A stretch of 59,548 nt of DNA from Amphiscolops sp. MND2022 (lineage: Eukaryota): NCBI GenBank assembly GCA_964187785.1, contig CAXLNC010001679.1:124001-183548 (forward strand), written 5' to 3'. The translations under genes and the position numbers were made by a program. Positions within the stretch are counted from its first letter, which is position 1. Each line of letters starts with the position of its first letter. Positions 1 through 34,739 of the stretch are shown here, piece after piece. The notes under the pieces are model-generated. The model was not told where the DNA came from. It worked only from the letters and a program-made list of their open reading frames with translations, and made no database searches.

Positions 1-675
1 GATACCTCCCCACTTATCTTGTCTGCACTATCAAGTAATTCTGCATTACGAATTGCAAGACAACACGCAGAATTTCTATCCTCTGATACACATTCTTCTG
101 AATTTGCTCCACCATCTTATTTTACATCTGGCCTTGGTACAGCTTCACTACTCTCATCTGACGTTCAAACTGCACTTCCATCCAGAAACCTATTTTCTGA
201 AGTTTTAATCCCTACTCCTGTACCTCCACATATTCGACTACCTGAATATTAAACTTCAGAACACTCTCGTCCTCGAACTCCTAATTTTGCAGACTATCTA
301 ATACGAGTTGACGGCACTACTATGTATGAACCAAAAAACAATTCACGTTTTCTAATTCTGACAGAACGTTTTATTACAAAAAACGACTCTCTGTCTAACA
401 AAAGAAACAAAGCAAAAATGAAACGACTTCAAATTTCTAATCTAGAAGTCAAATTTGAAGTTAAAGTCAAGTTCCAAGGTTTATATCCTCATCCAGTCCT
501 TCAAGTTTCTAAAATAGAACACAAAACTACTCCTGCGCCTTTTGAAGTTATTCATATTCATTTCGAAAGACATCCCCAAATTCCAGATTTAACATATGGC
601 AAAATTGTATTTTACAACCCATACTCAGGTCTTAACTACAACTTCCTTTTAAATTACACACTCTCTTTTATATGA
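1..675 (+). pseudogene. Degraded Gypsy pol 3' Ser/Pro-rich tail and pre-env leader region (element A)
   Basis: The Ser/Pro-rich ORF 19-252 and ORF 322-675 (NLEVKFEVKVKF) match NLEIKFEIAVKF at about 44265-44300, which has the same position between integrase and env in element D. Confidence 0.55.
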
Positions 676-1320
676 TTAATGTTAAACTGCATTCCTTCCT
701 TTTGACAATAACATACACTATATCTATTTCACCCACCGGTAAAGAAAATTGTCTTCCATCTGATGATCCAAATATTACCAATCTAATGATTTCTCACTAT
801 GATTGCGAAAAAAAACATAATCTTAGACATTTCAACGTATTAAACCTTAAACAATGTACAGAAGTTCATTCTAACATACAACATGTTAATGTTAACGCTC
901 AAGTCTAAGTTAGAGCAAGAACTAAACGAAATAAAGACTTCAAATTTGTTGCTTATGCAAAAAAGAACGCAAAATCTGTTTTCAAGGTTCCGTTAAATAT
1001 CGACACGCGTTGATAGAACTGTATGGAATCAGAACGCTTTGACAATTGTACAAATAACAAAATATTATTCAACTTAAAGTACAATGAAACCTTTACCCTA
1101 TTGGAAGATCATTAATTTCAAGAAAGATTGGAACAGTATCAATCTCATTTCACTGTATACCAATTAAACAAAATGTACACAGGCACTTTCACTTTCATGC
1201 CTGCAGATGGACATTGGTTTTATGATTCTTCAAAAAACCCTGATCACAATTGTCCTGCCCATATTTAGTTCATACCATTGTTATTAACAAAAATACATTT
1301 TTTATAAAAGAACTTGAGAT
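672..1320 (+). pseudogene. env-like glycoprotein, N-terminal part (element A), interrupted at about 1320
   Basis: Hydrophobic N-terminus, then SHYDCEKKHNLRHF..C..V*VRARTKRIK. Homologous to the starts of the env remnants at 24740 and 44625. Contains in-frame stops. Confidence 0.75.
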
Positions 1321-2140
1321 CGATTAGGTTAGTTTTTTCCTTTTTCAGAGACCATACTTATAGTTTCCACAAATTGATTTTGTTAGAAGTGACGGTTCCT
1401 TTATGTTTGTAATTGTTTTATGCATTAATTTACTTCAGTGTTTTGAAAAATATAATCTTTAATATGAAACTTGTATCAGGCGTTACCAAAAATAAAAAAG
1501 ATCCCTAAACAACTATGGCCCTATCATATTACGCCTTTATCGATTTTATTCATTCCAAATATGGCAATTACAGATGGTAGTGTAATCACGTTTTCTACCA
1601 CTCATTGTTAAGCACGTTTTAATGTCGATTCTTATTGGCTCCCATATGGTTCTTGGTTTCCATAGAGATATAATGATACCTGTGAATCTAAAATCAACTT
1701 ATTTTGGACCATGTCATCTTTTCCCCCACAGGTACACCTTGTTGGGAATTACACCCCGAACACGAAATTACGTTTTGTTCTTGAATAAAAATATTTCAAT
1801 AATAAGAGAATATTATTTGAATGTATATACTTAGAGGATTGTCTCTACAACTATTTGGACACTTCAGGTAAAAGTGCCAACCCTTTGGACACTTCTCTTT
1901 CTTCATTACTTTGAGTTTTGACACATAATTCTTTTTCATATAAAGTATTTGCGTGAAAAAAAATGGAAATTGATAGTTCCCATAATTTCCAAGTTTTATG
2001 AAATTCAATGCAAAAAGTGCAATTATTTATGGCTCATGTTATAAGGGCGGCCATATATTCCCCATACCTTATCAGGAAGGCCTGACTTGTATGTATCTTT
2101 AATTGTTATTCAAACCATTTTTGCCATACTCTAAAAAAAT

Positions 2141-2590
2141 CAGGGTTGGCAAAAACAGTTTTTTGTCATATTAAGCTACACAGACAAATTTTTATAGTAA
2201 AAACATGTTTTTTTCATGTTTTTTCAACCACCGAGCAAAAAAAGTATTTGTTTCGAGAGCTCAATTAGACAAACAAAGTTCAACTCTTTTTCTGAAACTT
2301 TTTCGTTGTATTGGCAATACAACAAAGCCTGTTTTTCAAATTTTCCGACTGCCGCTGGGCGCGAACTTTCCGTAAGTTAGCCGTAAGCTTGAGAAGTTTC
2401 TTTCCAGGCGATATGAAGATCCACGGCTGACACTAATGACTCCGTGACATTCACAATAGATTCTGGAAAACCCCTTTTAAACCCACTTTTCACAAAAATT
2501 ATCTAGTGGAAAAGGAAATGTTTCACAACGTTTTCATTGATGTTTTAAAACTTTTTTTACTGATTACAATGTTTCTGAACAGCCAACCCT
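2141..2590. mobile_element. Non-autonomous TIR DNA element (MITE-like; hAT- or MULE-type ends)
   Basis: Terminal inverted repeats (C)AGGGTTGGC and GCCAACCCT. The direct repeat AAAAAAAT(C) flanks both ends (2133-2141 and 2591-2599), consistent with an 8-9 bp TSD. No transposase ORF. Confidence 0.75.
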
Positions 2591-2654
2591 AAAAAAATCA
2601 ATAGCACCACTGATTGTGAAAATGTTTTGGACTAAAAAAAGGAATCGATATCTC

Positions 2655-3050
2655 CGTAAAAAATATTTCCTGCCAAAAACTATTAAAATGAAAGTTTCTC
2701 AATTTTTGAATCAGAGATCAATGGATACCAAAGGACTTATAAATCCTCCTTCACAACACAAATCCTATGTTTACGATTTTGCACTGAACTTCCAGAACAT
2801 TCCAACTACAATAAAACACACCTAAACCCAATTTTTCATAAAATTATTTCTTGCCGTATGTTACAAATTTACTCTACAGTCTTTGAACACACTCTTTCAA
2901 GCGTACCTCACTAAAAATTATCACGAATGTAAGCTACTTCCCCTTGGCACCTTTGTACTTAAACGTTAATTTTTCTCACGTAGAGTTTTCTGACAGATTC
3001 AAACCCCTTCGGATTGGTCCATACAAAATTCTTGACAGACTCTCAGATTT
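2655..3050 (+). pseudogene. Ty3/Gypsy integrase fragments (element B)
   Basis: SMDTKG(L)INPPSQHKSY at about 2718 marks the first catalytic Asp region. KPLRIGPYKILDRLSD at 3001-3048 is the GPY/F module. The core between them is largely deleted. Confidence 0.8.
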
Positions 3051-4420
3051 CCAAATGCTCAAACTTTTTGTGATAAACCTGAATCTCTAAATTCTATCCT
3101 ATACTCTGATCTTTTTGTAACTTATGCTCATGGCTTTATTATGCATACAGGAAACCCTCAATCTCTCACTAACGAAAATATCTCTGGCAAAATTGTATTA
3201 AACAATTAATATATCAATTTTTTGTTTCCTGCAATAATTGTTTCAAATAACTTTACTACAATTGACTTTGATGAACACATAAATACAATAATTGAACATA
3301 TTATAAATCATGTTTTCCGTTTTATGACAGTACAACAATTGAACACTCCATACCGTTTGTGAACTTAATCGAAATCAATTTCTTACAATACTTGGAATGT
3401 CAGTACAAAATCCTCAACTTGCTGGATTCCTATTAATGGGAAATCGCAGTAACTTCTTATACATCGAAGGTTCCACTGCTTGTCTTCACGGTTGTCACAT
3501 CGGTTGTCTCTCATTTAAACAAAGCTGATCGATGTTTCGATCATATACCAATACATTTCAAAGATACTCTTATTTATGTTGATACAATTACAAGACAAAC
3601 CTATGACTATGATACTCCTATTACATGTGATAATAATCCTAAAAACATTATTGAACTAGATCCTGATTCTGTTGATCAAGACTTTTACATTTTTGGCCCA
3701 GAACCCAATAAAGGCAAACCACCACTCATGTTTACACGTTCTCAAATTAAAACTACACAACGACCTAACACATTCACAGCCCAAGATGCTGGAATATGTT
3801 CTAAAGCTGAAGTAGATCAATTTTGGAACAGAATTTTATTTTCAAAACATTCGGTTTCAACACTTCAACTTTTAGGAAAAGCTCTTAGTTATTCCTTTCT
3901 TTCTTCTAATACACTTGATTAAGATGCAAATTCTCCTCATCAAAATCCTTGCAATACATTACGCATTGGTTTACATGATAGACTTATCAATCTCACTCCT
4001 CTTTTCACACCTACAGGGTTCTCAGATGCTTTTATTGCACTAATTGGATACTCATTTTACATTTTAACACAATGTGGAATATATTTTTCAATGTTTTGTT
4101 TCATACAAGCAACAATTACTCTCATTGTCAAATTTTATAAAACAATTTCAAGTGAATACTATCTGAAACAAAGTATTACAAAATTTCGTTCCAAAACTCA
4201 TGGTTTTTTCAATATTCCTACACCTGAAATGATGAATGACCCCAATGATACTCATCATCACAAACCCAAGTTAGCAATCAAAAGTTCAAAACCTTCACTT
4301 ATGACAAATGTGTTTGACAACCCATTAGATGACTTCTCTAAATTTTGTGACCAAACCAATCATATTACACCTACAACACCTCAAAGTGGTATTACATCAC
4401 CACCACTTTTCTATACATAA
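3051..4420 (+). pseudogene. env-like glycoprotein, C-terminal half with TM helix and tail (element B)
   Basis: Translates to AGFLLMGNRSNFLYIEGST..CFDHIPIHFKDTLIYVDTITRQT..CDNNP..DPD, then FWNRILF, a hydrophobic segment (IGYSFYILTQCGIYFSMFCFIQATITLIV) and a tail. Homologous to 26040-26800 and 45200-46000. Confidence 0.8.
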
Positions 4421-6733
4421 TGACTGAACAAATTTAATAAAATAGGACGATTCAAATCACTTCCAAAAAGAAAACACAATCTTCATCCCAAAAAGTATCA
4501 CAAAACTTCATCACTTTTTTCACAACAGTACAGAATCCAACTTTATCTAACTATTCGACTGTCAATACCACTCCTAATGACAGCTATCTTGAAAACATTT
4601 ATACTAATATTGATAATGACAGCCCTGTCAAAGTATATTCCAAAACAAATTGTCCGTTTTCTCCGCTATCTTTTTCGACTCTATTTATTCTACCTTTTCA
4701 CTTCAGTGTCGTACACTTTTCTTCCACTTGCAAAAATCTAAACATCTTTATTGAACAAATCTTTTCTAAAACAAAATCTGCGCTTATTTCTAAACAAAAA
4801 CAAGATTGCGCTTTTTTCTTCATCTGACATTCTAGAAATCGTTGTTCGCCGGCCTAAAATTCCTACAATAAAAAAACGTGTCTTGGTTCCACGACCAATA
4901 ACAGCTGATAAAGCTACTCATTGGTGTAATTTTTCTTCAAACAACAAATTATTTGCCAAAATCATTTCCTGTATGGTACAAACTCGCACTATTCTAAACA
5001 AATGTACTCTTCGTGATCTAACTCAACTGTTAGATCCATACAAACAAAATCCATCTGTTTCACAACGTATCACTCAATCATCACAAGCAATACAATCAGC
5101 ACTTGACTTCATGAATGTTCTTTTTACTTCAACTAATTGTCATCAGATCTCCACACAGGTAATACAAATTTCTTTTTAATTTTCACCCCAATGGAACACT
5201 ATTGGACAATATGGCTATTCAGGTAGCATTTTAAAGTCTTTTTACGGAACTCTCTCAGGTATTTTACCCAAAAATTTCAGCTGTTTTACCTTCAAAAACC
5301 TCAGGTACAAACAATCTACCTACAAAACTTTTTTCTTAATAATATCCTTTACTATTTTACTCTCAAATAAAAAATTGTATATGCTCTATGCTTTTAAAAA
5401 ACTTTCTACACTGAAAAAATTATAAAACAAAGTTAGCACACTATTTTACGAACATATAGAACCCAATTTTATTGCACAAATTGATGAATGACCCCAATGA
5501 TACTCATCATCACAAACCCAAGTTAGCAATCAAAAGTTCAAAATCTTCACCTATGACAAATGTGTTTGACAACCCATTAGATGACTTCTCTAAATTTTGT
5601 GGCCAAACCAATCATATTACACCAACAACACCTCGAAGTGGTATAACATCACCACCACCTTTCTATACATAAGGACTGAACAAATTTAATAAAATCAGAC
5701 GATTCAAATCACTTCCAAAAAAAGCACAATCTTCATCCCAAAAAGTATCACAAAACTTCATCACTTTTTTCATCAACAGTACAGAATCTAACTTTATCTA
5801 ACTATTCGACTGTAAATACCACTCCTAATGACAGCTATCTTGAAAACGTTTATACTAATATTGATAATGACAGCCCTGTCAAAGTATATTCCAAAACAAA
5901 TTATCCGTTTTCTCCGCTATCTTTTTAGACTCTATTTATTCTACTTTTTCACTTCAGTGTCGTACACTTTTCTTCCACTTGCAAAAATCTAAAAATCTTT
6001 ATTGAACAAATCTTTTCTAAAACAAAATCTGCGCTTATTTCTAAACAAAAACAAGATTGCGCTTATTTCTTCATCTGACATTCCAGGAATCGTTGTTCGC
6101 CGGCCTAAAATTCCTACAATAAAAAATCGTGTCTTGGTTCCACGACCAACAACAGCTGATAAAGCTACTCATTGGTGTAATTTTTCTTCAAACAACAAAT
6201 CATTTGCCAAAATCATTTCCTGTATGGTACAAACTCGCACTATTCTGAAACAATTGTACTCTTCGTGATCTAACTCAACTGTTAGATCCATACAAACAAA
6301 ATCCATCTGTTTCACAACGTATCACTCAATCATCACAAGCAATACAATCAGCACTTGACTCTATGAATATTCTTTTTACTTCAACTAATTGTCATCAGAT
6401 CTGCACATAGGTTAAAAAAAGTTCTTTTTAATTTTCACCCCAATGGAACACTATTGGACAATATGGCTATTCAGGTAGCCTTTTAAAGTCTTTTTACGGA
6501 ACTCTGTTAGGTATTTTACCCAAAAATTTCTGCTGTTTTACCTTCAAAAATCTCAGGTACAAACAATCTACCTACAAAACTTTTTTCTTAATAATATCCT
6601 TTACTATTTTACTCTCAAAGAAAAAATTGTATATGCTCTATGCTTTTAAAAAACTTTCTACACTGAAAAAATTATAAAACAAAATTAGCACACTTTTTTA
6701 CGAACATATAGAGCCCAAATTTATTGCACAAAA
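4230..6733 (+). repeat. Tandem duplication, 2 x 1252 bp (4230-5481 and 5482-6733)
   Basis: Near-identical copies start TGATGAATGACCCCAATG and end ATTGCACAAA. Paired ORFs appear in the track (4751 and 6002; 4091 tail and 5472). Confidence 0.95.
4751..5179 (+). other. Possible accessory ORF 3' of env in element B (second, truncated copy at 6002-6268)
   Basis: A 142-aa open frame downstream of env with no recognised motif. Support is positional only. Confidence 0.3.
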
Positions 6734-9599
6734 ATTGGTTAAAATGAAGGATTTCGGTTCTCAGAACTACTTTGTTTTAAAAACATCAATTCAATTTCCT
6801 CCTAGTTCTTCTTTACATCTTTGGCCCAAGCCCAATACTGTGGAACCATACTATCGGGACTTTTCTCAGAATCCAACGTCATCATCGTGTTCTCTTGGCT
6901 CCAGATCCTAAAACAACTTCCAAATTTATTTTCTCGAACAAAGCCAACAGTTTGAAATCTGCTATATTTCATACAAAGGCATAAAATGGCATATTTAATC
7001 CTTGCAAGATCAAGAAAAGACATAAACTTCGAACAATATGATCGTCTTCATCTTGATGGCCCTAAATTGCCATCTGTGAAACAGCCTCCAATATGGTTTT
7101 CGTCCTAAACTCATCTTTTATTACCAAAGACGAAAATTTTAGAGTTGCCATAGCCGAAGCCTGTAACGCTTTTAGTAAAATGCTCTTGCATTTTGGCTAA
7201 ACCCAAAATCTTGAAATCTACAACCCACCCATCAGGTCAACCCTCCACAAACTCATCCATTTTGCTGAATGCAAAAACAAAACAAAACACTTACTTACTT
7301 TCAATCTTCTTGTTCCACTATTTGACATTCATTCATCCCTCTTTGATGATTGTAGTAGAACAGGTTGTCCACTTCCTTCAATTCTCCTTCACACGAAGCT
7401 TTCTTTACTATGATGCACTTTTGCCTCTAACAACTCGATTGGATACCATCATCCATCGTCTTTCACTTCACACCTACGGGTCACTAGTCACTGGTCCTCT
7501 CCATCTTCCCTGGATTTCAACATCTTCACTGGTCTTTCGGGTCACTGGTCTTTTTCATCGTCACTGGACTTCCACAACACTTTGCTCCAAAAAAGCAACC
7601 CACGAAATGGAATGAACTTTAAACTACGGTATTTCAAACTTTGAAATGTAATTTTGAAACTTTATTTCAATCCATCCCTCAATAAAAACCCTCCCTTAAT
7701 CAATCGTATGATCGTAGTTACTCATTGTAATCTTAATACTGCTGCAAGTTATTCATAATCCTCTAATTATAGCCGCATGTTAATCGTGCAACCATCCCAA
7801 CTGTAATCCTAATACTCATTATTAATGTATAACATTTGTAACCACATCAATAGTATTTTTATTAATCTTATTACTAATGGTAAAAGTTGCAAAATATTTA
7901 AGCATCCATAAAAAAGTGCATAATGCATTATTATCCTACTCTCTTTTCACAGTACAACAATCCGTTCTATGTTATAAAAGTCTTTTACCCAAGTAACATC
8001 AAAAATTTCATAGTAAAACATATTTTTCAAACGTTTGAAACACTCCAATGTAGAACAAACGCTTTGCTCCCGCTCTGCTAGTCACTTGTGTTGAAAATGA
8101 ACTCGAATTAGAACCTTGACTTTTCAAAACTTCTTCACTCTTTGTTCAACACCCGCCACTGTTTGTTCACAACTCATTGACAAATTTTTAAGTAGCTTTT
8201 CAACTCGAAACTTGTTTTCACTGATAAATAAGCCGATGGCAGATACGGAAATTCACAATACGAAAAGTGACAAATAATAGAATACAAGTTGTCAATAATC
8301 ACTGGAACAAAACTGTCAGTCATTCTAAACTGAAACTTTTGCCCCAATTTGAACCGTCAATTACATAAGAAGTCAAATTGTCATAGGTTGTTCTCATTCC
8401 TTAAGTATGATACACTTCTAGAACAAGAACTCACGCATACAACATCTGAAACAAAAACTTAAGAACTTCTCACTTCCAATGTGCAGATACGTAGACTTTA
8501 TTTTTCAAAAATTCCCTGTTGATTTTGATGCCATGATGCATGTCCTCAAGTAATTTAGAATACTTATCTAATCTCGAAAGGCACCCACCTTTTATCAGAC
8601 AGATGTCACATCAATTCGAAGATAATTAGATTGATGAAACTTGTTGATAACTTCATTAGTATCTCATTTTATTAACTGGCACTTCAGAATGAATATCATG
8701 ATTATAATCGTTTGTAATCGTTGATGAAAATACTGAATATAATATACTCAAAGAAAAAAGAATTTGATCTGTAGGACAGCCTTCCTCTAGAATAGACATA
8801 AACTGATATCTCAGATATTTTTGGAACAGCTATAGTTGAATACTTAGACGATTTGCTATTATGATTCTAAGACTTCTTTGTAATCCATCGAAGAACTAAA
8901 ACAAGCAACCACACAATTCTTTAACATGTCATTTCGGTACAATTCTACAGTGCTAACAAAATTGATTCAACTCATGTCGGTACACCTTACTTTCGTTCTA
9001 ACCAAACCAATTTTGGTTCAGCATTTCTGTTGGTATAACCTAAACATATTCTAATCTCTCGTTCATTCATTTTTGATGCCGTCTTTGAAAGTTACTGTTT
9101 TGTCTTTCCATAGTTTTGCTGTATATTTTTTGCCTTTTCAATGTCGTTGCTCTCGTCATCGATATTTTCATGCTTCATTTCATCTCACCAATTTTCAAGT
9201 CCCTGTCATCTATAAAGTTCTTCACTGAAAACCTCGCTAATATCATCATTTCCTTTTTCATACCTTAGCAATGTTCTTCTAAGGCTCCTCGTTGAACAAA
9301 ACGGTTGATTTCCTTCTTTATTGATTATACACCTTCTTATCCCTGTCCCACCACCAGTAATTTACTTATATAATAACTCCATATCTAACGTTCTTGTTTT
9401 CACCGCCTTTGTTCGAATCTAAGCACATCTCCTCATTTTAATCTAATTTCTTTTCTGTTTATTTTCCATCTTTCTTGCGTATCATCACCCGCAATTTGTG
9501 GCTTCTTTTCATTGTAAACTCAAACCCACCCATCGCATTTTTACAACATCATCGTCTTTTCTTATACTCTTTTAGGCCAATATTTCTACCCTCATCACC

Positions 9600-10680
9600 T
9601 GTGTCAGGGTCAAGTCGCCCTGCTAAATTTTGCAATTTTATCCTCCTACTTTACCGGTGAACTATCCATCCTCAGGATATCTCCCAATAAATTTGGTTAA
9701 TAATTTACCCTCCCGCGAGTCTAAACAAATTCTCACTAAAGTTCTCAAGAATCTCATTTATAATTCCGCGGTCCCTCTTGCGTTAAACCTGCCCGGAAAA
9801 TCTGTTCAAAACACCTCTCACTCTTGAACGTCACGACTCCTACCTTTGTTACATAGACACAAATCCTATACTTGAAACTCCAGGTGCACATCCTGTTTCA
9901 ATACCTTTCACGCCAACTCAGCTAGCACTATGAGATAAATCATTTTTCCACTAACATTTACATTCCAAGTGCTCAATTTATTACTATTTTTCTCGAAAAT
10001 CTTTCAGAAAAGATTACTACTACCTCAACATACTTTCGCTTCATCTGCTCTACAAGCAATCTTCCAAAAAAAATCTTTTTGATCTCCCCTGTAACGGAAA
10101 ACTTTGAACAATCGGAAACAACTCGCATCACTGGCTTCACACCGATATTCTTCAATTTAATCTTTTCAAAAGTCATTTGTTTCCTAAATCTCACCTTGGA
10201 CACCCAAACTGAAAAAAATTCAAATTTACTCACTTTTCCTTGTATTCCATAACTACCAACTCGTTTGTGATATCAAAGTTCGAGAAGCTTGTGTTAATTT
10301 TATCTCTCATTTTCCACGCAAACAAGGAAAATAAACACCATCACTTTAATATTCTCCTTGATTTTCCAGTTGCTCACATTTGATAACCTAAGCCTCTTGT
10401 TAATCCAACCCCAAGTTCAGATCCACCCTCTAAACCACCCTTCCAAAAACTACTCAACCTTCAACCTCACATTTCACATAACAATATAATAATGTCCATC
10501 TGCATCTCCTTCCCCTCCAATTGTGATTCAGCCTTTTTGCTGGTACAAGCCTTCTTCTGGACTAGTGGTTCGACCTCGTAATCGGTACAAATGTTCAAAT
10601 TCTTTTTCTGTACTAACCAAATCCACTCTGGTTCAACAATTCTGTTGGTACAATCTTGACTTCTCATTTTCAAAAATAGC
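9600..10680 (+). pseudogene. Degraded Gypsy 5' region (pre-gag ORF or gag N-terminus), cut off by the BEL insertion
   Basis: NLIYNSAVPL (9750-9780) matches NLTYNSTVPL (18403-18432), which lies upstream of gag in element C. A Pro-rich stretch follows at about 10400. Confidence 0.4.
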
Positions 10681-10684
10681 GAAA

Positions 10685-10917
10685 TAAATAGCGATCGTTT
10701 ACATGTATGACTTTACTGCACACGAAGTTTACAATTTCCAAGTGAAAGATTTTTAAGGGCTTTATTTTTGAACACAGTCCGAACCAGACGCGAAAATACC
10801 AGCCTGTTATGTAAGAGGTCAAATGTTGTTGTCAATCATATTAGTTTTAGGGGTTTTGAGCTCTAAAAGAACTGTCAATCATTAGTTGTCACTTGCTTAT
10901 GTTGTTTGTCAACAACA
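10685..10917 (-). repeat. 3' LTR of the BEL/Pao element (probably truncated at its distal end)
   Basis: A 233-bp direct repeat of 17442-17674 with 16 mismatches by my manual count (about 7%). It begins TGTTG on the minus strand. No matching TSD was found at the left end. Confidence 0.9.
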
Positions 10918-10930
10918 TCCTCCGCCCCCA
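10918..10930 (-). promoter_or_regulatory. Polypurine tract
   Basis: Minus-strand TGGGGGCGGAGGA lies immediately before the TG of the 3' LTR. Confidence 0.8.
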
Positions 10931-11520
10931 ACGAATATGGTGGCCCGAAGACAGGAGCACGTTTGACCAGCGGACGTACAAGTGAGTCGCTAGAAGACAA
11001 TGCCGGTCGTCGAACGAACTATTTCCAAGTGTATTGCTCTGGCTGTGAGACACGTAAACAGGAACACCCATCATTTCTCTGAGCTGCGCCGAATAGAAAC
11101 AAAGAACGGGCCAGAGTAATCCACCACGCAGTTACTGAAGGCTGGCTCCAGATAGCCAGGCCTTTCTTTCGGTAAGTCGGCCATCATGGGGTTACGATTA
11201 CGGCGTCGCGTTTTCGACAAGGAATGCTTTGGTAGCGGATGGTTCGGATGATGGAGCGGATCTTCAGAATGATATACTTATGGCCCACTTGGGCTTTTAC
11301 ATAGTCAAAGACCAGATGATGGCATCTTTGATGCAGGTGTATCAGCATTAACTTGACGAAAGGATGTTTGCCATCAAGTATTACAGGGTGTTTGGTGTCG
11401 TATCAAACGTCTGAAAGTCGTCGACTCTGTGACCGTAACACATTGTCAGGCCCAATTGAAGGGGAATATGATAGGAGACGGAGTTTGCCGGACTTTTGTC
11501 CTTTGGCGTCAAGAAGATCG
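10931..11520 (-). pseudogene. BEL/Pao integrase remnant with catalytic core deleted
   Basis: PMMADLPKER..PAFSNCVVDYSGPF..WVFLFTCLTARAIHLEIV is joined almost directly to the C-terminal LVRPLVKRAPVF. Confidence 0.85.
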
Positions 11521-14330
11521 TTAGGGAAAGAGTCTACTTGCTAAGTAAAGTAGTTTCTTTTCGGCATTCTTCAACTCGCTCGGGTCCTCAATTTTGCCAT
11601 TATTGGAGCGAAAATGGCGGCAACGAGGCGAAAGCCGAAAAAGGTAAGCGACAATTTGGATGAGCTTGCGATAAAAACAATAGTCACTCCAAACATTGAC
11701 GGGGGAGATAGGCGGCGACGCTGCTGCCACCGAGTTGGACTGTAAGTCGTCAGTTGCACACGTTTCCGTTGGTTTAACAGTAAAAATGGCGGATGGTTCC
11801 TGTTCAAACGGCCAGTCGGATGTTCTAAGGAAAGTAGGCCCTTTAACCCAGCAACAACTTGGAAGATCTGTTGCAGCCAGCCCGCGCGTTCCAACTGCAT
11901 TATTATTAGCTGTAGGAACGTGAAACCATTGGTCGATTGTCGTGGTTTCCAGAATTTCCGCTACGCGGTTCGCAAGAAAAACAGGTTGTTTATCTGCTGA
12001 AGCAAGCCATTGAAGCACTGTGCTGCTATCGGTCCACATGAAAGAGTGTGGCACATCAACAGTTATTGCACCGAGGATATTCTGAAGTAAGTGTGCAGCG
12101 AGGAGCCCAGATTGCAACTCGAGCATAGGGATTGTTATTGGTTTCATATGCGCAACACGTGCTTTGCCTTCTACGAATGACTAATGCGCAATATTTGAGC
12201 CTTGACACTTACCTCGAAGGAAGCCTACAGCGCCGACGATGTCCTTGGAGCAGTCAACGGACATATGCAGCTCCTTCGACTGGGCTAGAGAAATATGGGC
12301 GAGGGATTGTCAAGTCTTGAAGCAACGGTAGTCCGGAACACCAATCATCAAATCGGCGAGAGAGGTCTTCGGGCAGTGGGTCCTCCCATTGTTGCCCTTT
12401 GACTTTCCAACTATCTTTCAAGAGCACGCGAGCAACGACGGTGGAGGGTGCGACAATTACCAGCGGATCGAAAACGACAGAGACCGTGCTCAACGCAGTG
12501 CGTTGTGTGTTGGGTCCATTTTCCTTCAACTTAACACCTCGGCTCACATTCAAATTGTCAGCGTTGTGATCCCATTTGAGACCTAAAACATGCGACGTGA
12601 TCGTCGGGTGTTGGATAATTTCTTTAACTTGTGGAATCGGAACGGACGGCTTAAGTGTTTCAGATAAATCGGTTTTGAGATAAATCGTTTTAAAATTAAC
12701 TTTTTTAACTTGAAGCTCCCTAGTTTGAGTATTTCAATTAGCTCTTGACTCAGTTTTAAAGCAGTTTCAGGACACTCAACAGAATCGAGGTAGTCGTCCA
12801 TGTAGAACTTCTGTTGGACGGCTTTTGCGGCAAGACTACAGGTGCCTTCATTGTCTCTAGCTGTTTGTTAAAGCGCAAAGTTAGCGCACGTCGGCGAGTC
12901 TCTCTCTCCAAAAATGTGCCTCGTGTACTGGAGTGTCTCCACATTCTGTGTAGGGTCCGCCCTCCACAAAAAACGCAAAAATGTTTGATCTGGAAGAGGC
13001 ACACCGACCTGAAGGAACATTCCTTCAATATCTGCTGAAACTGCATACTGATACTGCCGGAAGCGAAGGAAGCGTTTAACAGGTCTTGCAAGAGATCAAG
13101 GATTGTTAACAGGCAACTTTTCAGTGACTTGCCATGAAACTTTGACGCCCCGTTTAGTACCCGCCAAATTTCCCCGGCTTGTTCGGGTTTACCACGGGGT
13201 GGTGTGGCAAATACCAATTTTGTGAGGAACGGCATTAAACGTGTTAAACTTACCAACGGGGATCACATAACCCTTTTGAAGATCATCGTGGACAGTTTTC
13301 ATATAATTTGATTTGAGCTCTGGGTCCTTTTCCAGTCTCCGTTCAAGTGATTTCAGCTGGACCAGTGAAGCGTAGTAATTGTTAGCCAGCTTTACGTTGT
13401 CTGTCGCCCACAGCTTGCCGACGGAGTACCGCTCTCCATCGTGCTGGGTGGTTGCCTCGAGGATTTTGATGGCAGGCTTGTCCGCAGCAGAGCGAGGATC
13501 GGCTTGAATGCAGGAACCATAGGATTCGATGTCATACCACGCTTTCACCTGTTCCGCTAATGAGAGGTCTTCAACAGTAGCCTTAAAACACATGGAGACA
13601 AACGAAGCGGACGTTCGCTCAGGTGCTGCACCACAGAGAGCCCACCCTAACGGCAGCTGAACAGCCCACGGATCAATCATGGGGTCACCATTGAAGGCAT
13701 TAATTGGGTGAATATCATAAAACGCGTCTTGACCAATAATGAGCTGAACATCCGAATAATTATAAACGATGGGAGGGATGGGAGCGAGATGCAGATGTTG
13801 CTTTTGTAGTTCCGGTATATCGATGAGCTCCTTTCCTAGTGTCAAAGATTTCGTTAATGGTTTAAGGTCAAATGAAAAGGGAGGATCGGCATGCAGGGAC
13901 GGAACTACAATTTCAACACGTTCAGTTATGACTGCTTGATTGGATAAATTGCCACTAACGGCAACCTTCGCAGAAGGGCCGGTGAGAGACAATGTCAGAT
14001 ACCCAAGAGTGAATGCTCCCAGTATCAAACAAAGCTGAGACTTCCGCAGATCCACAACGACTGGAGACGTATACCAAAACGACAGGTATAAGGCTCTTGT
14101 GTCGATATACGTTGCGGCATAACTACAAGTAGACTTACTACCGCTCGAGACAGTAGCGCTAGATAGATTATTCGGTGAATTCGGTGAATCAGAAGACTTT
14201 TTCTGACGCAATGGAAAGATGCGACTTGCGCCGTTCAACAAAGTATTATGCTGCCGTGGATTTTGACAGCCTGTAGATGTACATTGTATGTCCTTGCCGC
14301 ATTCACTGGCTCTTTGTACACCATTCACAC
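11521..14330 (-). pseudogene. BEL/Pao pol: protease region, reverse transcriptase, RNase H (frameshifted)
   Basis: WRVLNGASKFHGKSL..LQDL; SADIEGMFLQV; YTRHIFG; FYMDDYLDS (12793-12804); KPITIPMLEL; WTDSSTVLQWL..VFLANRVAEI. Confidence 0.92.
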
Positions 14331-16170
14331 ATCGAAAGCAGAGATTGTTATCAGCGGCAAGTTTCGCGCGCTACGTAGGTGATTTCGCTTCAAAATCATC
14401 ACACTTCCACAATGGGTGCTTGCCTTTACAACATGGGCAGGGCAAAAATTTACTTTCCGGGTTGGTACTTCGCGCATACCTGGGAGTAGTGGACAAAGTG
14501 GACCCGGTAGCTGCTGTGGCGGAAAGAGACTTACGCCTACTTTTGACTTTGCTGGCTCCTGAGACGTTCAATCGCTCATGGGCTTCTGCTTTTCGTTTGA
14601 GCCGATCGTTAAAGTCGATAAGCGTGGGTCGCAGCATGTCTTTTACTAACTGTGTGCATGGACCATTGCTCGCGAAGATTTCATGGTAGTTTGTTAACAG
14701 CTTGGTTCAACAAAGCAGCTCCTCTCAAGTCATTCTCGTAGTTTAGTGAACGGAATACACCTATAATACTTGCAATGAAATTCGCGAAATCAAAATTATT
14801 TGTTCGGAGCTTTGTATTTTGACAGTGGTTTGACTAACTTATCAAAATAGGCACCCACGACTACTTGTGGCTGCCCAAATTTGCGTTCTAACGTTTTCAG
14901 GCTACAATCTCTATAAAACCGTCCAGAGTACGCAACGTCAGCGATTGCTAATTTGGCTTTACCAGTCACAAGAGTTTTCAAATAGGTGAGTTTCTCGTCG
15001 TCCGTCAAGTTATCTGAATCGATCGCACTCTTGAATTGACCCGACCACTCATGCCATGACAACATGTCTCCGTCATACTTGGAAAAAGTCCACTCTGGGA
15101 GTGGTCCCTTGCGATTCGATTTGAAGGCTTCGACTAAGTTTTGCAATGTGACTCCGGGCTGGACGACGTTAATTGTTGGGACAGCGAAAGGGGTAAGGTG
15201 ACCTGTTGGTGCGGCAATTGGGCCAGTATTCGGTAAGACGAGCGTTTGTGTGGGAAAGGGCGAGCTTCCATAACGAACAGAACCATGTGCACGCTGCGGA
15301 ATTACTGCAGTTGTTGACACGACGTTCGTGTTTGTACAAGCAGTAAAGATCGCAGTAGGTCGCGAAGTTGTAAGAGACGATGACATCGTAGCGGCTACAT
15401 GGTTATTCACCCAAAGAGACATTTTCGGAACCTACGAATTTGTCAGAAGCGAAGACTGTCCATTAAAATTAGGACGTTGTTGCGAATGCGAAGTGTAGAT
15501 GGCAGTCGAACCCAATACGTTGGGTCACTGTTCTGTCACGGTTTCGGAGTTAAAGTTCAAGTGTTGCTGAAGTGAGGGCACAATGGTGTTGTCGATAACA
15601 TTAGATTGGGCAGTCGCCGCGTTGTCTGCAAACTGAATCAGGTTATCTTCAATGTGAGTAGTGGATTTCACATTGTCGAGGATAGATCTGGCAGCCTGGT
15701 CTAAGCCACGGCTCGCCTGGGAAACGATATCAGTTGGGAGAGGGACGCCCAACACCCGTTCAGTCTGATTCGCGATCGAGTGCACCCAATCCGTAGTTAC
15801 ATTACCAGTGCCACTATGCACATCGCTGACACCCAAAGGCGCCAAATTTACATCATTCGCAACACTTGAATCATCTGCTAACTCCATTTTGTCTATTTTC
15901 AGCTCATCCAATTCGCGGCGTTTTTCTTCAGCAATTTCTTTCAGTCTTGGGTCGAAGCGGTCTTTTTCAAGTTGCAACGCTGCTGCAGTTTGACGTTCAG
16001 CTCCTTGAGCTCGTAATTTAGTAGCCTCTAGGGCGCGTCGCCGTTGGCTAGAAGTCATGGAAGCAGTTCGTGAAGAAGGTTGTGAACTTTTATGCGAGCG
16101 TGAGCCAATGGGATGGAACAGATTCAGGTGAGCGCAGATTCGAGGTCTTCATATGTATTTCTGAGCTCAT
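14331..16170 (-). pseudogene. BEL/Pao gag (frameshifted)
   Basis: Start MSSEIH.. at 16170 reaches the 16058 frame through a one-base frameshift. A coiled-coil N-terminus is followed by FSKYDGDMLSWHEWSGQFKSAID..KLTYLKTLVTGKAK (DUF1759-like), and knuckles CPCCKGKHPLWKC and CQNPRQHNTLL. Confidence 0.85.
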
Positions 16171-16199
16171 TCTCAATTTTATTACGGGCTTAGAACCAC

Positions 16200-16873
16200 A
16201 CGCTTCCATTTTTGCTTCAAAACAAAGTCGAAAAAAGATAAAAAAACGAGGACTCTCAACTCAGTAGGCCACGACCGTCTTAAGCGGTCTATTGTCTTAA
16301 GCGGTCTCTCCTTTGAAAGAGGTTTGGTTCTTGCTCTGAACAGGAGAAGACTTTTAAGGTTATTTTGATGGCGAAGGATTGTTTCGAAAAGACATTTTTC
16401 GCAACGTACACTAGGATGTACTTGTCCCAAATCAGACTGGACAGAACTATTTTGCCTTTGAGGCGGGATATCAGGTGTCTGCGAACGTCCAAAATCAAAA
16501 TTTTACTTCGGAAGAGTTTTCGAACGATGTTTATCTTTTCACTAGTGAGTTGCAGGTATAAAATTGACGCAATGCGGGCTTTAAGCTCAACAAGTATGGG
16601 CAGAAGATCCTCCACCGAACAGGCTTGGAAATTGTTGGTTGAATGTACAGAGACAGTGTTGCTAATGACCCCGTGCCAGATCACAATGTCCCGCCTACTT
16701 CGCAAGGGACCCTGTCTAAGCAAGTTCTGGAAGGTTTTCAACATGTTGTTTGCTTTCGAATTAAAACTCAAGCCACCCACGGCGTAGATCTTTGGCCCGT
16801 GCAGGCGTGTTTCTGCATAGGATAATTTTCGAAACAATCCAGCGAGCCCGCTTGCGCCTATTAAGTACACCAT
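16200..16873 (-). pseudogene. SGNH/GDSL-hydrolase-like accessory ORF upstream of BEL gag (one frameshift at about 16450)
   Basis: Block I-like VYLIGAS at the N-terminus, block II-like GGLS, and block III-like IVIWHGVISN. After the frameshift come the block V-like QVHP (ORF 16182-16430) and a basic tail. Confidence 0.55.
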
Positions 16874-17191
16874 CGACTAATGAAAAATCAGTATCAATTC
16901 AAGGTCTGGTTACTCTTTTGCGTCTGGTTTTTTGACTATGTGCGAAAAACTCTGCTTCAATCAATAAGCTCAAGAATCTGACGCAAGTGTCAGAAAAAAG
17001 CAAACACAAATGAGGGGAAGGCGCTGATGCCTTAGAGGTTTAAGAAAAACATTTTATATATTTTTTCAGTTTACAGTTTTTTTTGGTCAAGTGTTTTACT
17101 CACGACACCTCGAACGGGGTTGCATCTTCGTTACACCACGGGAGACAGACCAGCGACTCCACGCGACAGCCCCAGAAACAGCGGGTTCCAG

Positions 17192-17329
17192 GAATATTCC
17201 CTCGATTGGAGGAAGGATATTCCCTCGATTGGAGGATGGATATTCCCTCGATTGGAGGATGGATATTCCCTCGATTGGAGGATGGATATTTCCTCGATTG
17301 GAGGATGGATATTCCCTCGATTGAAGGAT
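17192..17329. repeat. Minisatellite, 6 x 23 bp (GGATATTCCCTCGATTGGAGGAT), in the BEL leader
   Basis: Six contiguous, near-identical units with no spacers. Confidence 0.97.
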
Positions 17330-17355
17330 AGATCATTTGGGAGAGCTTTTGGTAA

Positions 17356-17372
17356 ATTGGGTCGCGGCACCG
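17356..17372 (-). promoter_or_regulatory. Candidate decayed primer-binding site (tRNA-His-like)
   Basis: Minus-strand CGGTGCCGCGACCCAAT resembles TGGTGCCGTGAC.., the complement of a tRNA-His 3' end. It lies about 300 bp inside the 5' LTR start. Confidence 0.45.
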
Positions 17373-17674
17373 GTATTTTACTGACGACAGTAAAAAAGTA
17401 AAAACTCGAAGAGGTAATTTCAAGCTGTAGTAATATCAAATTAAATAGCGATCGTTTACATGTATGAATTTACTGCACACGAGGTTTACAATTTCCATGT
17501 GAAAGATTTTTAAGGGCTTTATTATTGAACACAGTAAGAACCAGACGCAAAAATACCAGCCCGTTATGTAAGATGTCAAAAGTTGTTGTCAATCATATTA
17601 GTTTTAGGGGTTTCATGCTCTAAAAGAACTGTCAATCGGTAGTTGTCACTTGATTATGTTGTTTGTCAACAACA
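17373..17674 (-). repeat. 5' LTR of the BEL/Pao element
   Basis: 17442-17674 matches the left LTR. The extension to about 17373 is inferred from the PBS position. Confidence 0.85.
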
Positions 17675-27300: not shown

Positions 27301-27992
27301 ACTTTACCTTCTGTCAATAGTATATTCATTCAATCTGAAAGCCATGTCAAATTTCATTCATCTCGCTTCCTACCTGAATAACTCAACAACTTCTCTATAC
27401 AATGAATTTAGTCAAGTTTCTCTTGCTGTGGAGCTGCTTTCTCGTTCACCAACTTTCTTCTCAAAAACGCGAACTTTCAAATCAAAGTAGTACACAGTTT
27501 CCATTTATATTTTTACTTCTGAAAGAACTCACAATTTTTAGTCATCAAATATATCTGCTTATACCGTTTTTCTCACTCTACATTATATATTCTCTCACAA
27601 ATCTGCATCATTTTACACCCTTCAATAGTATATCTTTAAACTTCAGCGTGTATAACAAACCACTAAAATGACTTCTCATCAATGTGACGAAAAACCTCAT
27701 TCTGATATCGCCTCTTTTACTTTACCTCTCTTCCTTAAAATCAGGTACCTTGAACTCCCAACTCATGTGCTTGAACCAACTCCTATCACTTCTATTCAAT
27801 CTCCTGAACTAGCACTTTCAATATTGCTCCTTCATTCAAACTCCTAGTGTTTCTACTATTCAAACATAACCTCTCTTTTCATCTCCTGAAACTCCTCATT
27901 CTCCCCCTCCTCCACCTACTAATCATCAAGCTACTACTGTTACTATGGATAATTGCACTTATACTATTCCTAAATAGAAAAAAAGGAAGACC

Positions 27993-29100
27993 ATGCCTTC
28001 AAACATCATGGTATTCTTCCTCCTACTCTACACCTGTAAAAATTCAACTCAAACCAATACAAAGACTGACGACATTCCACGCACTCATCTCAATTTTAAA
28101 GCCAATCTTCTTTTCCTCTGTATAACGCATACTACCTATAAATTCCGCTTTCTCGAAGCTCGTAATTTTGATCAAATTGTCACATATGCATCTAAGAAAT
28201 TAGAAAAAAAACACCATTTTTGCCAATTAAATTAACGAGTTTTTTTCCAATTCCAATTCAACTTTTTAAAACCAACTCGACATGATCTTGAAACAAACTC
28301 AAATGATATCACTACCGCTCCAGCATCAAAGCAACTCCGTCATCAAACGTATCAACCTTTTCCTCAAACAGAAACATCATCAGAATTTCATCTTCATAAA
28401 CCACAAATTAACTTCGCTGTTCTCCTACCACTCTCACTACTCTTTAAACCATCACTACATCATCGGTTTTATTCGCAATTATGACCCTGTTAAACAATTT
28501 TATATACTTGCACGCTATCATGATCCAACTCGTCCTCTATTTGATGATCACTCGCGATCTCTGTACACTTCTCTTGTACATTAACGTTACGCTACTGCTC
28601 AACTGAATTTTGTCATTGCAAACCTTCAATTTAAAAAAAAAAACCAATACGAGTCTTTTCCGGCTATTACTAACATTCCTTAACAAATCAAGAAGGCTTT
28701 GGCTAAATCAATTCCTCCATCTTCCACAGCTCTTGTACTTTCTCTTGTTCCTCCTCCAACTCTTGTTCAACCACCCTCCTCTTCATACGCCTTGCAAACT
28801 GTAAACCCCAAATATCTGTATTAACTTTGTCTCCTGTCCTACTGATAAACTGGTCACAGCAATTCTTAACTTCCTTCTTCCTCATGTTGAACTCGCTCGT
28901 AACACTCCTTACATCTCTTTGATACTTATCGTTTGCTTCAGAATTTTCTTCAACTCCACAAAAACTCCACACTCGGACTATGTTTACTATACTTATTGAA
29001 GATTTTCTCAAAACACCTTTTGTTCTGGAAACTCCTTGTTCATTTGTCACTTCCTCCTAATTTTTTTTCACTCCTTCTCCTCATTTTTCACTCCGCCTTC
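27993..29100 (+). pseudogene. Conserved accessory ORF-X downstream of env (duplicated at 34797-35900)
   Basis: Motifs HTTYKFRF, FDQIVTYASKKLE, FSYHSHYSL, DDHSRSLYTSLV, SCPTDKLVT and FDTYRLLQNFLQLH are all shared with 47540-48780. Confidence 0.6.
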
Positions 29101-30096
29101 TTCAAGTTTTCACTCCTGCCTGAATTTCACTACATTTTTTTTGCCAAGGGTAAAAACATTCTTTTGAGTTTTTTTTAGTTTTTCTCTTCAATTTAAACAC
29201 CTCCACTTTATCTTTCCATCTATCATTAATCTCGTAACTTCTCAAACTGCGAATTTGATCCTTTCTTCCACTGTCCATTGACAATTTTTATTCAGCATCT
29301 CTCAAAACTCCTCTGTTAACTTCCAGCTTTTGACACTACCTAGTAGAAACTTTTTGTTCATCGATTTTATCCTTAATTACATCTCGTTTCTCACAAGACT
29401 TACCATGTCAACTATTCAATTTGTTTCAAAGCTCGTTCTAAAATCATTCACTTTTCTCAAAAAAAAACAATTATGTCTTTTCATCAAGAAACTGGTTTCC
29501 GTTTTCCTAGCATACCTTGTTTTATTTCACTTTTATATCCTCTCAGTCTACTCGCTATGGACTTGGAAAATACTTGATCGTTTGTACCACAAGTTATCGA
29601 AAACTCAGCTGAAATATGAGTTCACGTTATTTAAGACAAGATTGTTTCTCATCTCTTTTTTATGTCACAAAATACAGTATTGTTTCTGACCTCAAATTGA
29701 GTTTTTAACATTTGTTTATTTTGGATCGCAGGTAATTCGTTCCTTTCGCATCGCAATTTTGTTGGTTTCACCATGCTACTCGACATTGAATAAACAAAAC
29801 ACAATACAATTAAAAATACAAGTACAAACACATTCAAATACAAAACTCGTGCCCCTTGATTTTATCATTGCTCTTCATTGTCAACCTCCAATATTACAGT
29901 CCTTTCGCTGCGTGTCCTAAAGCAATACTGTTTTTTTTCAATCACCCCTCTTGAAATCTTTTTCGGCTTTCACAACTGTTCGGCTTCTTTTAAACTCCAT
30001 CCCAAAGTTAGAACACAAATACCATGCACTACATCCTCCACTTCTGTTGCAGCTTCTTTCACTTTGCTGCCCATTTCTTCTTTTTAATCTCCCAAG

Positions 30097-31200
30097 ATGC
30101 CTATTCTCACATCAGAGGCTGTGGCCACCAACTACATTTTGCAACAATGCTCCTTAATCAGAGGCTTGACCCAAAAACTTGAAACTCGCAAGCCCCGGTA
30201 TCCGAAACGTCCACAACTGCCCCCAGGTGAAGCAGGATCTGCTACGAAGATAAGTGTCCAGTCTTCTGTAAATAACAAAAGCTTGAAAACAATAACATAT
30301 CTCAAGCAATACGAAGCTTATTCCGACGAACAATTCAAGTTTCAAAACTCACCGAATATAATCCAATCGCCAAAAATTTGAATCAAATAGCTAATCTTTT
30401 ATTCACTCCCTCGCGTTATCTAAAATTAAACCCCTTTTTCTTTAGCTCTACTGTTAACCCCTCACTATTCAAAAACACCCAATACCTATTTTAATTGCTT
30501 ACAATTTACCCTCATTCCGCAAAGGTTCTTACCTTCTTCCCTTCAATCTTTGTCAAATTAAAACTCCATCTGCTCAAATGCCGCCATCCCTTGCGCTGAT
30601 ACCATTAAAATTGAAGCTCTTACCACCCATTACCCAAAGTTTTGATGATTTCTCAAAAGTTCTGGAAAATGATTTATATACTTTGGCTACTTCTCTGCAA
30701 GAATTCGACACACAATTCTCATCGTGTTTTCTATAAATTTAAAAGACATTCTTATAAAAATTCCTGTATATTCTGTCTCTTACCTTGTAATTTCTCCTCT
30801 TATTTTAAACCCACTCTTAGGGCTCTTCTTCGTAAACATAAAACTTCTTTAATGCCATTTCTTTTCAACGAACAGTAAACTTTAATACAATTTACATTTT
30901 CGATGCATTTCCACAATGTTGTTCCTGGTCATTTAGCGTCAACATCTTACTATTTGATATACCTATAATCTATTTTTCAATCATCAACCCCCATCCATTA
31001 TGTGAATGTCTAGACTTGAATCATGAATTTCAAAGTACCTAATTTTCCTTCTGTACCATGCTTCTTACTGTAAAGCTCCGTGATTTTACTTTTGCTCATT
31101 TTACACTTCTCTCGTATGATATTCATTGTATCGATAAAAGTCTTGAACTTCCTCATTCTGTAAGACAATACATAATCGTACTACTAAAACATTATCTTCT
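30097..31200 (+). pseudogene. Pre-gag ORF-Y or extended gag N-terminus of element D (duplicated at about 36900-38040)
   Basis: RKPRYPKRPQLPPGEA (30187-30233) matches RKPRQQKRPQLPLGEA at 49400-49446. TTCTTTAATGCCATT is shared between about 30845 and about 49972. Confidence 0.45.
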
Positions 31201-31249
31201 CAAACATTCCCTTCCGTCTCCAAAGTTTCAGTAAATACTCATATTATTG

Positions 31250-34200: not shown

Positions 34201-34739
34201 CAACAGAACCCTCTTTTATATGAAACTAAGTTGTATGAGTTGATTGTCATGTTACCAAAAGGATTCCGCAACAACACTCACAATCAACCCTTTCATCCTA
34301 TTGAAACTCTCCCCTCTGAATTCCAATACTACTATTTTAGTGACTCTCATCTTTCTGAAGATCTTTTAGGCAATATGACAAGTTCTTTATCTTCAAACGC
34401 TGATGAATCTCCTCATGCTAACGCTGTGTTTCAAACTTCTATTAAACCTACTGCTTCCCAGTCATTGCTTTTTTATATGTACTTTTCAACTAATTGAACA
34501 GCTTTTTCCTTCCATGTTTTACCATTACAACGTTAACCATCCGACCATTCTGTTGAAGCTCAAAAAATATCCTGTTCTCGTCACTGCTGAAACATGGTTA
34601 AAGCAAAAACAAACACCTTACACTTTAACCTCAATTCTTGGAGCTAACTCTTTCCTTCTACATAATACAAACAATTCCAACATTTACAAATTGACTCAAA
34701 GTAACATCCTATCCAACAGTACACACCCGACCCTCGAAC
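31250..34739 (+). pseudogene. gag and partial pol of element D, first copy (protease deleted; ends before integrase at the duplication junction)
   Basis: gag core CNEIFTRGLP; an RS-rich region; RT fragments KVVLD, FSTGDKLYALIRGFYGFKGLP; RNase H TVDASLLGLGAMLFQ, FDREL, FTDH. Confidence 0.85.
32672..32744. repeat. 9-bp tandem repeat (TTGGCAAAG)x8 at the protease/RT deletion site
   Basis: Eight contiguous units; an identical array lies at 39488-39560. Confidence 0.95.

Follow-up and report, generated by a model that had tools for sequence, protein, structure and literature searches.

A predicted SGNH-fold gene upstream of gag in a BEL/Pao retrotransposon, with relatives in LINE, Copia and EnSpm-like elements

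Introduction

Why unrelated transposons acquire SGNH esterases has been an open question since such enzymes were found in ORF1 of LINEs. The question is raised anew by a locus of Amphiscolops sp. MND2022, in which an additional reading frame, ORF0, precedes gag of a BEL/Pao element. An ORF ahead of gag is expected to block gag. The stretch of DNA analysed here (the window) comprises 59,548 nt (assembly GCA_964187785.1, CAXLNC010001679.1:124,001-183,548, forward strand), and window coordinates are used throughout. The original prediction, made from the letters of the window, described ORF0 as SGNH-hydrolase-like and as a captured esterase or lipid-binding module that may aid contact between particle and membrane.

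SGNH cargo in transposons is already known, and the lineage, position and translation signature of ORF0 were not found in print. Among the papers listed in literature searches, none describes SGNH cargo placed ahead of BEL/Pao gag, a LINE in which ORF1 is preceded by an esterase frame of its own, or leaky scanning in such a setting. A term search in a 2026 survey of env-carrying elements gave no mention of SGNH (PMC13524379).

With a probability of about 0.55, ORF0 is read here as a portable gene, shared among BEL, LINE, Copia and EnSpm-like elements, for a protein of predicted SGNH fold that is likely a Ser-His esterase and likely translated under leaky scanning.

The BEL/Pao element and its ORF0

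A decayed BEL/Pao copy lies on the minus strand of the window, and all features given here are on that strand. Its 5' LTR of ~300 nt (17376..17674) forms a direct repeat with the 3' LTR (10675..10917), which is 92% identical to it and truncated after 243 nt. LTRs of this family start with TG and end with AA, not CA (window 17376-17674, sisters L081-L100). These ends and the directly adjoining 5-bp target duplications were taken from sister copies; the duplication is known from these only, the window's 3' LTR being truncated. Directly after the 5' LTR lies the primer-binding site (17360..17372), the first base of which is unlike that of sister copies. It is followed by a 5' leader (16874..17359) with a 23-bp tandem array at 17194-17331, by the broken copy of the predicted SGNH-fold gene ORF0 (16307..16873), by a remnant of the ORF0-gag spacer (16210..16306) and by a gag-pol remnant (10934..16209) with deletions, stops and frameshifts, the gag ATG of which is at 16209. 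A polypurine tract (10918..10933) precedes the 3' LTR.

In Pfam searches, the gag-pol remnant matched DUF1759 (E 1.5e-9) and Peptidase_A17 (E 7.8e-12 and 4.6e-6). LTRs, primer-binding site, polypurine tract, DUF1759 gag, Peptidase_A17, DUF5641 and 5-bp target duplication identify the host as BEL/Pao. The predicted placement of ORF0 between primer-binding site and gag, in the same orientation, was borne out by the LTRs, the primer-binding site, the gag ATG and the Pfam matches. The element had also been described as lacking env; in a full-length sister copy, gag-pol indeed runs into the 3' LTR.

A tRNA scan across the window gave no match. In sister copies the spacer comprises ~300 nt, is ATG-free and contains one ~43-nt motif twice over, each time with a small hairpin (L084:2600-2910). 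Evidence for a structured spacer was weak (folding z -1.73; 4 of 100 shuffles equally good). Elsewhere in the window, a ~6.8-kb tandem duplication of 95-100% identity with a 9-bp repeat array occupies 27936-41565. The DNA flanking the element (1-10600 and 18000-52000) has a strong, steady negative GC skew of about -0.2 to -0.5. At 52000-59548, GC content rises to 0.42-0.49 and several frames of 100-190 codons occur; this part is possibly another element and contains no ORF0 match.

The frame that begins with the ATG at 16873 contains G6-A7-S8, G33-G34 and W66-H-G-V-I-S-N72, in full agreement with the GAS (6-8), GG (about 33) and WHGVISN (about 66-72) reported earlier. A frameshift lies near codon 140, and VHP, expected at about residue 155 after repair, was found in the second frame behind it; in open sister copies it occupies residues 152-154. 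The basic tail described for the window did not hold: that segment is partly read-through into the spacer, and the true tail is deleted. Sister copies have a true Lys/Arg-rich tail. Little of the spacer is left in the window copy, and deletions have also taken away portions of gag and, near 16,307, the end of ORF0. ORF0 is nevertheless real and not a chance frame, since it is open in 18 of 29 sister loci and matches 884 protein clusters.

Copy census and selection

For the copy census, the genome was searched at the DNA level with ORF0; 40 of 60 candidates were scored and 29 sister loci were examined. The 18 open copies among these have 194-200 codons, and gag was present downstream within the examined stretch in 28 of the 29 loci. 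As a search from ORF0 selects for ORF0, a second one was started from gag; it gave 58 candidates, of which 40 were scored, and 30 loci were examined. All 600 nt of ORF0 were covered in 28 of the 30 loci, 239 nt in one and none in another. By motif-based counts, which are lower bounds, ORF0 was open in at least 18 of the 30 loci and the first 199 gag codons in at least 17. The sole copy entirely without ORF0 has neither a splice (GT-AG) junction nor a target duplication; it represents a plain deletion, because leader and spacer sequence is lost too. In 20 full-length stretches, picked by ORF0 score, LTR pairs were mostly 97-100% identical where found, and several 5-bp target duplications were present. 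Inverted repeats of at least 40 nt flanking ORF0 were absent from the window. With the constant position in 28 of 30 gag-found copies, this agrees with ORF0 being an integral part of the element, as proposed, and not a nested insertion.

Selection was estimated by pairwise Nei-Gojobori dN/dS for 12 ORF0 pairs. A ratio below 1, suggested at the outset as a check, was obtained between related families: 0.10 (CI 0.05-0.20) for the BEL pair L113/L115, and 0.20 and 0.29 for two LINE pairs. In six deeper pairs, synonymous sites were saturated (pS 0.75-0.92) at pN 0.13-0.38. Ratios within young families (window versus sister 0.55, CI 0.26-1.36; Copia 0.74; BEL L109/L111 1.10) are uninformative, in keeping with post-insertion decay. 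That ORF0 is a real gene under selection can hardly be doubted, and the data support that it belongs to this BEL/Pao family and is under purifying selection.

Predicted fold and active site

Pfam gave no meaningful match for ORF0, and a PDB sequence search with two ORF0 profiles gave 0 matches at E<=10. A profile from 14 natural homologues matched 884 clusters (50% identity) at E<=0.001 and 163 at 1e-30. The best 150 of the 884 were mostly stand-alone proteins of ~200 aa, and the 20 cluster representatives looked up were without protein names. A pattern search of viral contigs gave 6 matches, none of them a relative; in genome contigs, one relative was counted. The sequencing runs listed for the family included no RNA.

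For structure comparison, AlphaFold models of an open sister copy were used (pLDDT 89.6 and 94.7). In Foldseek searches of the PDB, a PAF acetylhydrolase was the top match (E 6.4e-4, probability 1.00) and GDSL/SGNH entries filled the list. With VIA-align, S. aureus OatA-C (Z 11.1, models 10.9-11.1; rmsd 3.1; 141 residues aligned) scored level with an acetyl xylan esterase; the matches at the head of the list were all SGNH/GDSL proteins. A viral structure library gave no match at E<=0.001; its named rows were mostly phage SGNH domains. The ORF0 product is thus modelled, with little room for doubt, as an SGNH hydrolase fold of three alpha/beta layers, and the original fold assignment was supported at the level of predicted structure, while Pfam and PDB sequence searches remained blank.

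Conservation was evaluated in 109 representatives of 170-250 aa, the median pI of which is 10.4. Conserved positions are S8 (89%), G34 (87%), H67 (90%), D68 (92%), N71 (78%), N72 (91%), H77 (91%), Y106 (91%), R109 (87%), H153 (93%) and E159 (84%). Block I reads GAS, not GDS, and position 150, where the Asp of DxxH is expected, is variable (R, K, Q, A, G). Both the DxxH acid three residues before the His and a Pfam Lipase_GDSL/Lipase_GDSL_2 match are absent from the ORF0 family: no GDSL family was among the best 25 Pfam families listed for 76 members, and none was found for 12 members at E<=0.01. Model residues 1-174 aligned to residues 3-178 of thioesterase I; provided that no gaps fall within the end segments, S8 coincides with Ser10 and H153 with His157 (triad numbering from PMC10792757). 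By these aligned ranges, the block I Ser and the block V His are in register as well as conserved. Candidates for the oxyanion hole are G34, N71 and N72. The residues D68/N71 of most relatives are replaced by G68/S71 in the window's own family, and on account of these two changes its sub-lineage may be impaired.

A resemblance to the esterases of CR1/L2 ORF1 had been pointed out. It stands at the level of the fold; sequence kinship was not detected by profile comparison, and the block V Asp is absent. Gypsy and LINE elements of the same genome also contain canonical GDS-GxND-DxxH esterases. A thin profile built from four of them finds the zebrafish ZfL2-1 esterase (PDB 4C1B) at E 2e-8, and hhalign of the ORF0 profile against this thin profile gave a probability of 9.6%; as far as the tools used can see, ORF0 is therefore a separate lineage. 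4C1B was not among the fold matches listed, which excludes nothing. The canonical enzymes are fused behind a Gypsy integrase and also stand in the position of LINE ORF1 (L121-L128, L132; L129-L133), and one variant reads GSS in block I.

As a main-chain oxygen takes the place of Asp in five solved SGNH proteins (PMC10792757), a Ser-His enzyme is plausible, and catalytic activity of this kind is moderately favoured. An unlikely but serious alternative is that the fold is catalytically dead and serves RNA binding or scaffolding, like the OSK domain of Oskar. OSK is among the fold matches (PDB 5A4A; Z 8.3, rmsd 3.6, 142 aligned), the catalytic Asp is not conserved, the median pI and the Lys/Arg-rich tail would suit such a role, and H67, D68, H77, Y106, R109 and E159 are conserved polar residues in addition to the active site. 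However, OSK ranks below many active esterases. Oskar lacks the triad (PMC10792757), whereas ORF0 keeps S8 and H153 at 89-93% (n=109). A basic protein can be an active esterase, as ZfL2-1 (pI 10.8) is, and this enzyme does not bind oligo-A RNA (PMC3905857).

Carriers of ORF0 and probable exchange between transposon classes

A protein search of the same genome gave 2,837 candidates, 150 of which were scored; two further queries added families. Sixty stretches, a non-random selection made by hand to cover diverse carriers, comprise 27 BEL, 21 LINE, 6 Copia, 3 EnSpm-like, 2 tandem array and 1 unassigned. Class labels were taken from Pfam matches in one or more members of most families and otherwise from visible similarity, L117 being assigned by eye only. 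In BEL carriers ORF0 lies 5' of gag. In LINE carriers it lies 5' of ORF1 (with PHD and, in the main group, mostly CCHC), which is followed by endonuclease-RT. The Copia carriers are 6 copies at 5 places with ORF0 3' of pol, inside 88-bp LTRs in 4; in L101-L104, ORF0 occupies the env position between these very short LTRs. Three ORF0 copies adjoin SET-domain ORFs, and two of these are collinear with an EnSpm-like transposase (Pfam DUF1258, E 2.7e-8, over the cut-off; Transposase_21, E 1.3e-4, under it). No Gypsy carrier was present among the 60 hand-picked stretches. Six metagenome contigs hold ORF0 relatives at 26-36% identity, two of them in an ORF0-ORF1-endonuclease layout. The occurrence in unrelated repeats, which had been raised as a point to check, supports the idea of a captured module and extends it beyond BEL to LINE, Copia and EnSpm-like elements.

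BEL elements, taken as a group, can do without ORF0. Twenty BEL loci found by gag, in a sample that favours one BEL clade, represent 8 families: 2 with this ORF0, 1 with an unrelated SGNH-like ORF and 5 with neither. The unrelated ORF (L145:1816-2418, plus strand, also in L158; 201 aa) occupies the same slot between primer-binding site and gag in another BEL family. It reads SDS..GGN..DLCH, matches the canonical profile at E 4e-4 and does not match the ORF0 profile. It has 776 candidates in the genome, some of which are paired ~8 kb apart and may be LTR-borne.

The carrier distribution itself requires at least two moves between transposon classes. Rejection of BEL-only or LINE-only ORF0 clades was borderline (p-AU 0.043, 0.047, 0.059). 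A first tree test (p-AU 0.0006 and 9e-5) was discarded, as 5 rows of unassigned context had forced its result. Across 14 BEL families, ORF0 and gag distances were weakly correlated (Mantel rho 0.21, p 0.04), and in quick trees ORF0 of one BEL family groups away from its gag. Exchange of ORF0 among elements is likely from these comparisons.

Further arrangements were seen. The EnSpm-like DNA transposon (L194-L196, L212, L214) carries ORF0, a SET-domain ORF and an ORF that we take to be BEN-like from its sequence, without a Pfam match; here the ORF0 ATG is preceded by a splice-acceptor-like TTTTAG. In L192 and L193 (G000:C10:423000-443000), tandem units of ~1.9 kb each contain an ORF0 homologue and no visible element genes.

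It is conceivable, though improbable, that ORF0 is a nuclear anti-silencing deacylase acting on chromatin or silencing factors and was for this reason collected by elements of both classes. Helpers for RNPs or particles are not required by a DNA transposon, ORF0 of the EnSpm-like element adjoins the SET-domain and presumed BEN-like ORFs, and the tail would resemble a nuclear localisation signal. Yet only 3 EnSpm-like copies were present among the stretches examined, and the ZfL2-1 esterase did not deacetylate histone peptides (PMC3905857).

Translation signature

Start codons were counted in 16 elements (9 BEL, 7 LINE). L074, L152, L117 and L140 were left out because the neighbouring start or frame is broken (in L152, the gag start). 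The ORF0 bodies contain 18 ATG in 9,525 nt, versus 101+-8 expected from dinucleotide shuffles and versus 148 CAT. Out-of-frame ATG number 15, versus 59.6+-6.6 in codon shuffles. The spacers between ORF0 and the next ORF contain 7 ATG (34+-5 expected), whereas equally long starts of the next ORF contain 154 (167+-9 expected). In the leader of sister copy L084, 1 ATG was counted versus 8 CAT in 512 nt. The depletion is kept up over time, given that most of these families, compared with one another, have reached saturation at synonymous sites. Exceptions are L114, L107, L136, L137 and L152 (6 out-of-frame ATG versus 6.2 expected). A purine at -3 is found at 3 of 20 ORF0 AUGs versus 15 of 18 AUGs of the next ORF (Fisher p 5e-5). 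A later set, partly of the same families, gave 20 ATG versus 116 CAT in 13 ORF0s and a purine at -3 in 2 of 14.

The Copia ORF0, which is last on its RNA with nothing downstream, starts with ACCATGG. Copia (3-4 ATG) and EnSpm-like (1-4 ATG) copies are a weak control, since they are also fairly AUG-poor. The unrelated SGNH-like ORF in the BEL slot has 0 internal ATG and a weak start context.

An AUG-stripped ORF0 and spacer together with a weak ORF0 start form a signature of leaky scanning, and ORF0 and gag (or LINE ORF1) are quite likely read from one RNA in this way. In RTBV, leaky scanning proceeds over 900 nt through AUG-free ORFs (PMC5902531). Splicing to gag was rejected as a general mechanism: a donor-like motif upstream of ORF0 was present in 3 of 22 elements, and no acceptor before gag is shared. 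It may be the route to gag in single families.

The same signature could be taken to mean that the protein is incidental and that ORF0 is mainly a long upstream ORF tuning the output of gag or ORF1. The weak start, the AUG-free body and the filling of one slot by two unrelated ORFs fit such a role. It is nonetheless very improbable in view of purifying selection at the amino-acid level, the conserved active-site residues and the 3'-located Copia copy with its strong start. Least credible is a nested insertion or useless passenger, to which the ORF0-less and the partial copy among 30 gag-found loci, the 1.9-kb tandem array without visible element genes and the many BEL families without ORF0 might point: it is refuted in practice by copy census and selection, as ORF0 keeps its place in 28 of 30 copies as well as in distant families, the ORF0-less copy is a deletion extending into leader and spacer, no inverted repeat of at least 40 nt was found to flank it in the window and the ORF0 sequence is adapted to the downstream ORF.

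Proposed function

Under the main reading, a selected and probably leaky-scanned esterase gene, most ribosomes would slip past the weak start of ORF0, continue through ~900 bases with few AUGs and initiate at gag or LINE ORF1, so that each RNA would give a low and constant amount of ORF0 protein. Being basic (pI ~10.4), with a Lys/Arg-rich tail and without a separate targeting domain, this protein would associate with the element RNP or with anionic membranes, as modelled on the ZfL2-1 esterase, and would strip a short acyl group from a lipid or protein of the host. By analogy, this lipid or RNP helper role is possible, at somewhat less than even odds. ORF0 would help any kind of element rather than build particles. 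The particle-membrane role originally suggested was not supported: ORF0 is neither BEL- nor particle-specific, since it also occurs in LINE, Copia and EnSpm-like elements, and its retention by LINEs and a DNA transposon, which make no particles, renders a function tied to particles unlikely. The protein may still bind lipids.

In its widest form, the proposal is that ORF0 represents an unrecognised SGNH enzyme family without the Asp, a plug-in helper for all transposon classes that passes between BEL/Pao, LINE, Copia and EnSpm-like elements. Through a translation interface of its own, a weak start and an AUG-free body, it would dock before any gag or ORF1 without blocking it and would create three-gene LINEs, and the enzyme would remove a host acyl mark by which transposons in general are restricted. 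As a whole this is speculative and rather unlikely.

One compact single-domain lineage common to particle-forming and non-particle-forming elements rules out life-cycle-specific explanations and points to a common host target. Textbook layouts are changed, with a selected gene upstream of gag in BEL/Pao and three sense ORFs in LINEs; in both, the apparent solution is leaky scanning across ~900 bases, as demonstrated in plant pararetroviruses. The ORF0 family, which numbers 884 clusters and has no Pfam match, is overlooked by annotation. The small soluble protein should be easy to assay and offers a direct route to the question of why transposons carry such enzymes.

Comparison with known systems

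A close system is ORF3 of the bdelloid Vesta LTR retrotransposons, a GDSL/SGNH ORF shared with Athena Penelope-like elements (PMC5408684). Like ORF0, it is a stand-alone SGNH accessory ORF of an env-less LTR element, shared by unrelated retroelement classes, and it has no transmembrane segment or coiled coil. Vesta ORF3 lies after pol in Ty3/gypsy-type lineages and has intact GDSL motifs, whereas ORF0 lies mostly 5' of gag or ORF1 in BEL/Pao elements and LINEs, is invisible to Pfam, has GAS in block I and no block V Asp, and carries the leaky-scanning signature.

SGNH esterases are also present in ORF1 of CR1/L2/RTEX and in Penelope-like elements (PMC3905857). The ZfL2-1 enzyme, the nearest case studied for function, is a weak acetylesterase that binds anionic liposomes (PMC3905857). 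It is similar to ORF0 in its SGNH fold, its basic character and a basic peptide for possible RNA contact, and in both a His stands four residues before the block III Asn (H191/N195 in ZfL2-1, H67/N71 in ORF0, by eye). In ZfL2-1, the esterase is part of ORF1, where it follows a coiled coil, and has a full S143-D279-H282 triad; esterases of this type are reported never to occur with structural RNA-binding domains (PMC3905857). ORF0, in contrast, is a stand-alone ORF of ~200 aa that starts at strand 1 and in LINEs precedes a separate PHD-CCHC ORF1. No sequence-level link between the two was detected in PDB profile searches and profile comparison.

Ngaro elements (PMC9210276) and, as texim, fish Helitrons (PMC4021074) extend SGNH cargo to further transposon classes, a DNA transposon included, as ORF0 does. 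Unlike ORF0, these are recognisable canonical SGNH domains in other positions, and the accessible texts report no lineage shared by BEL, LINE, Copia and EnSpm elements.

For translation, ORFs I-II of RTBV and badnaviruses are the nearest parallel: a weak first start, ~900 nt without AUG and a polyprotein downstream on one RNA (PMC5902531). These plant pararetroviruses have unrelated ORFs, and there leaky scanning was shown experimentally, whereas for ORF0 it is deduced from sequence. For the fold, Oskar OSK shares the SGNH architecture and the basic character of ORF0; OSK lacks the triad (PMC10792757), whereas ORF0 keeps Ser and His.
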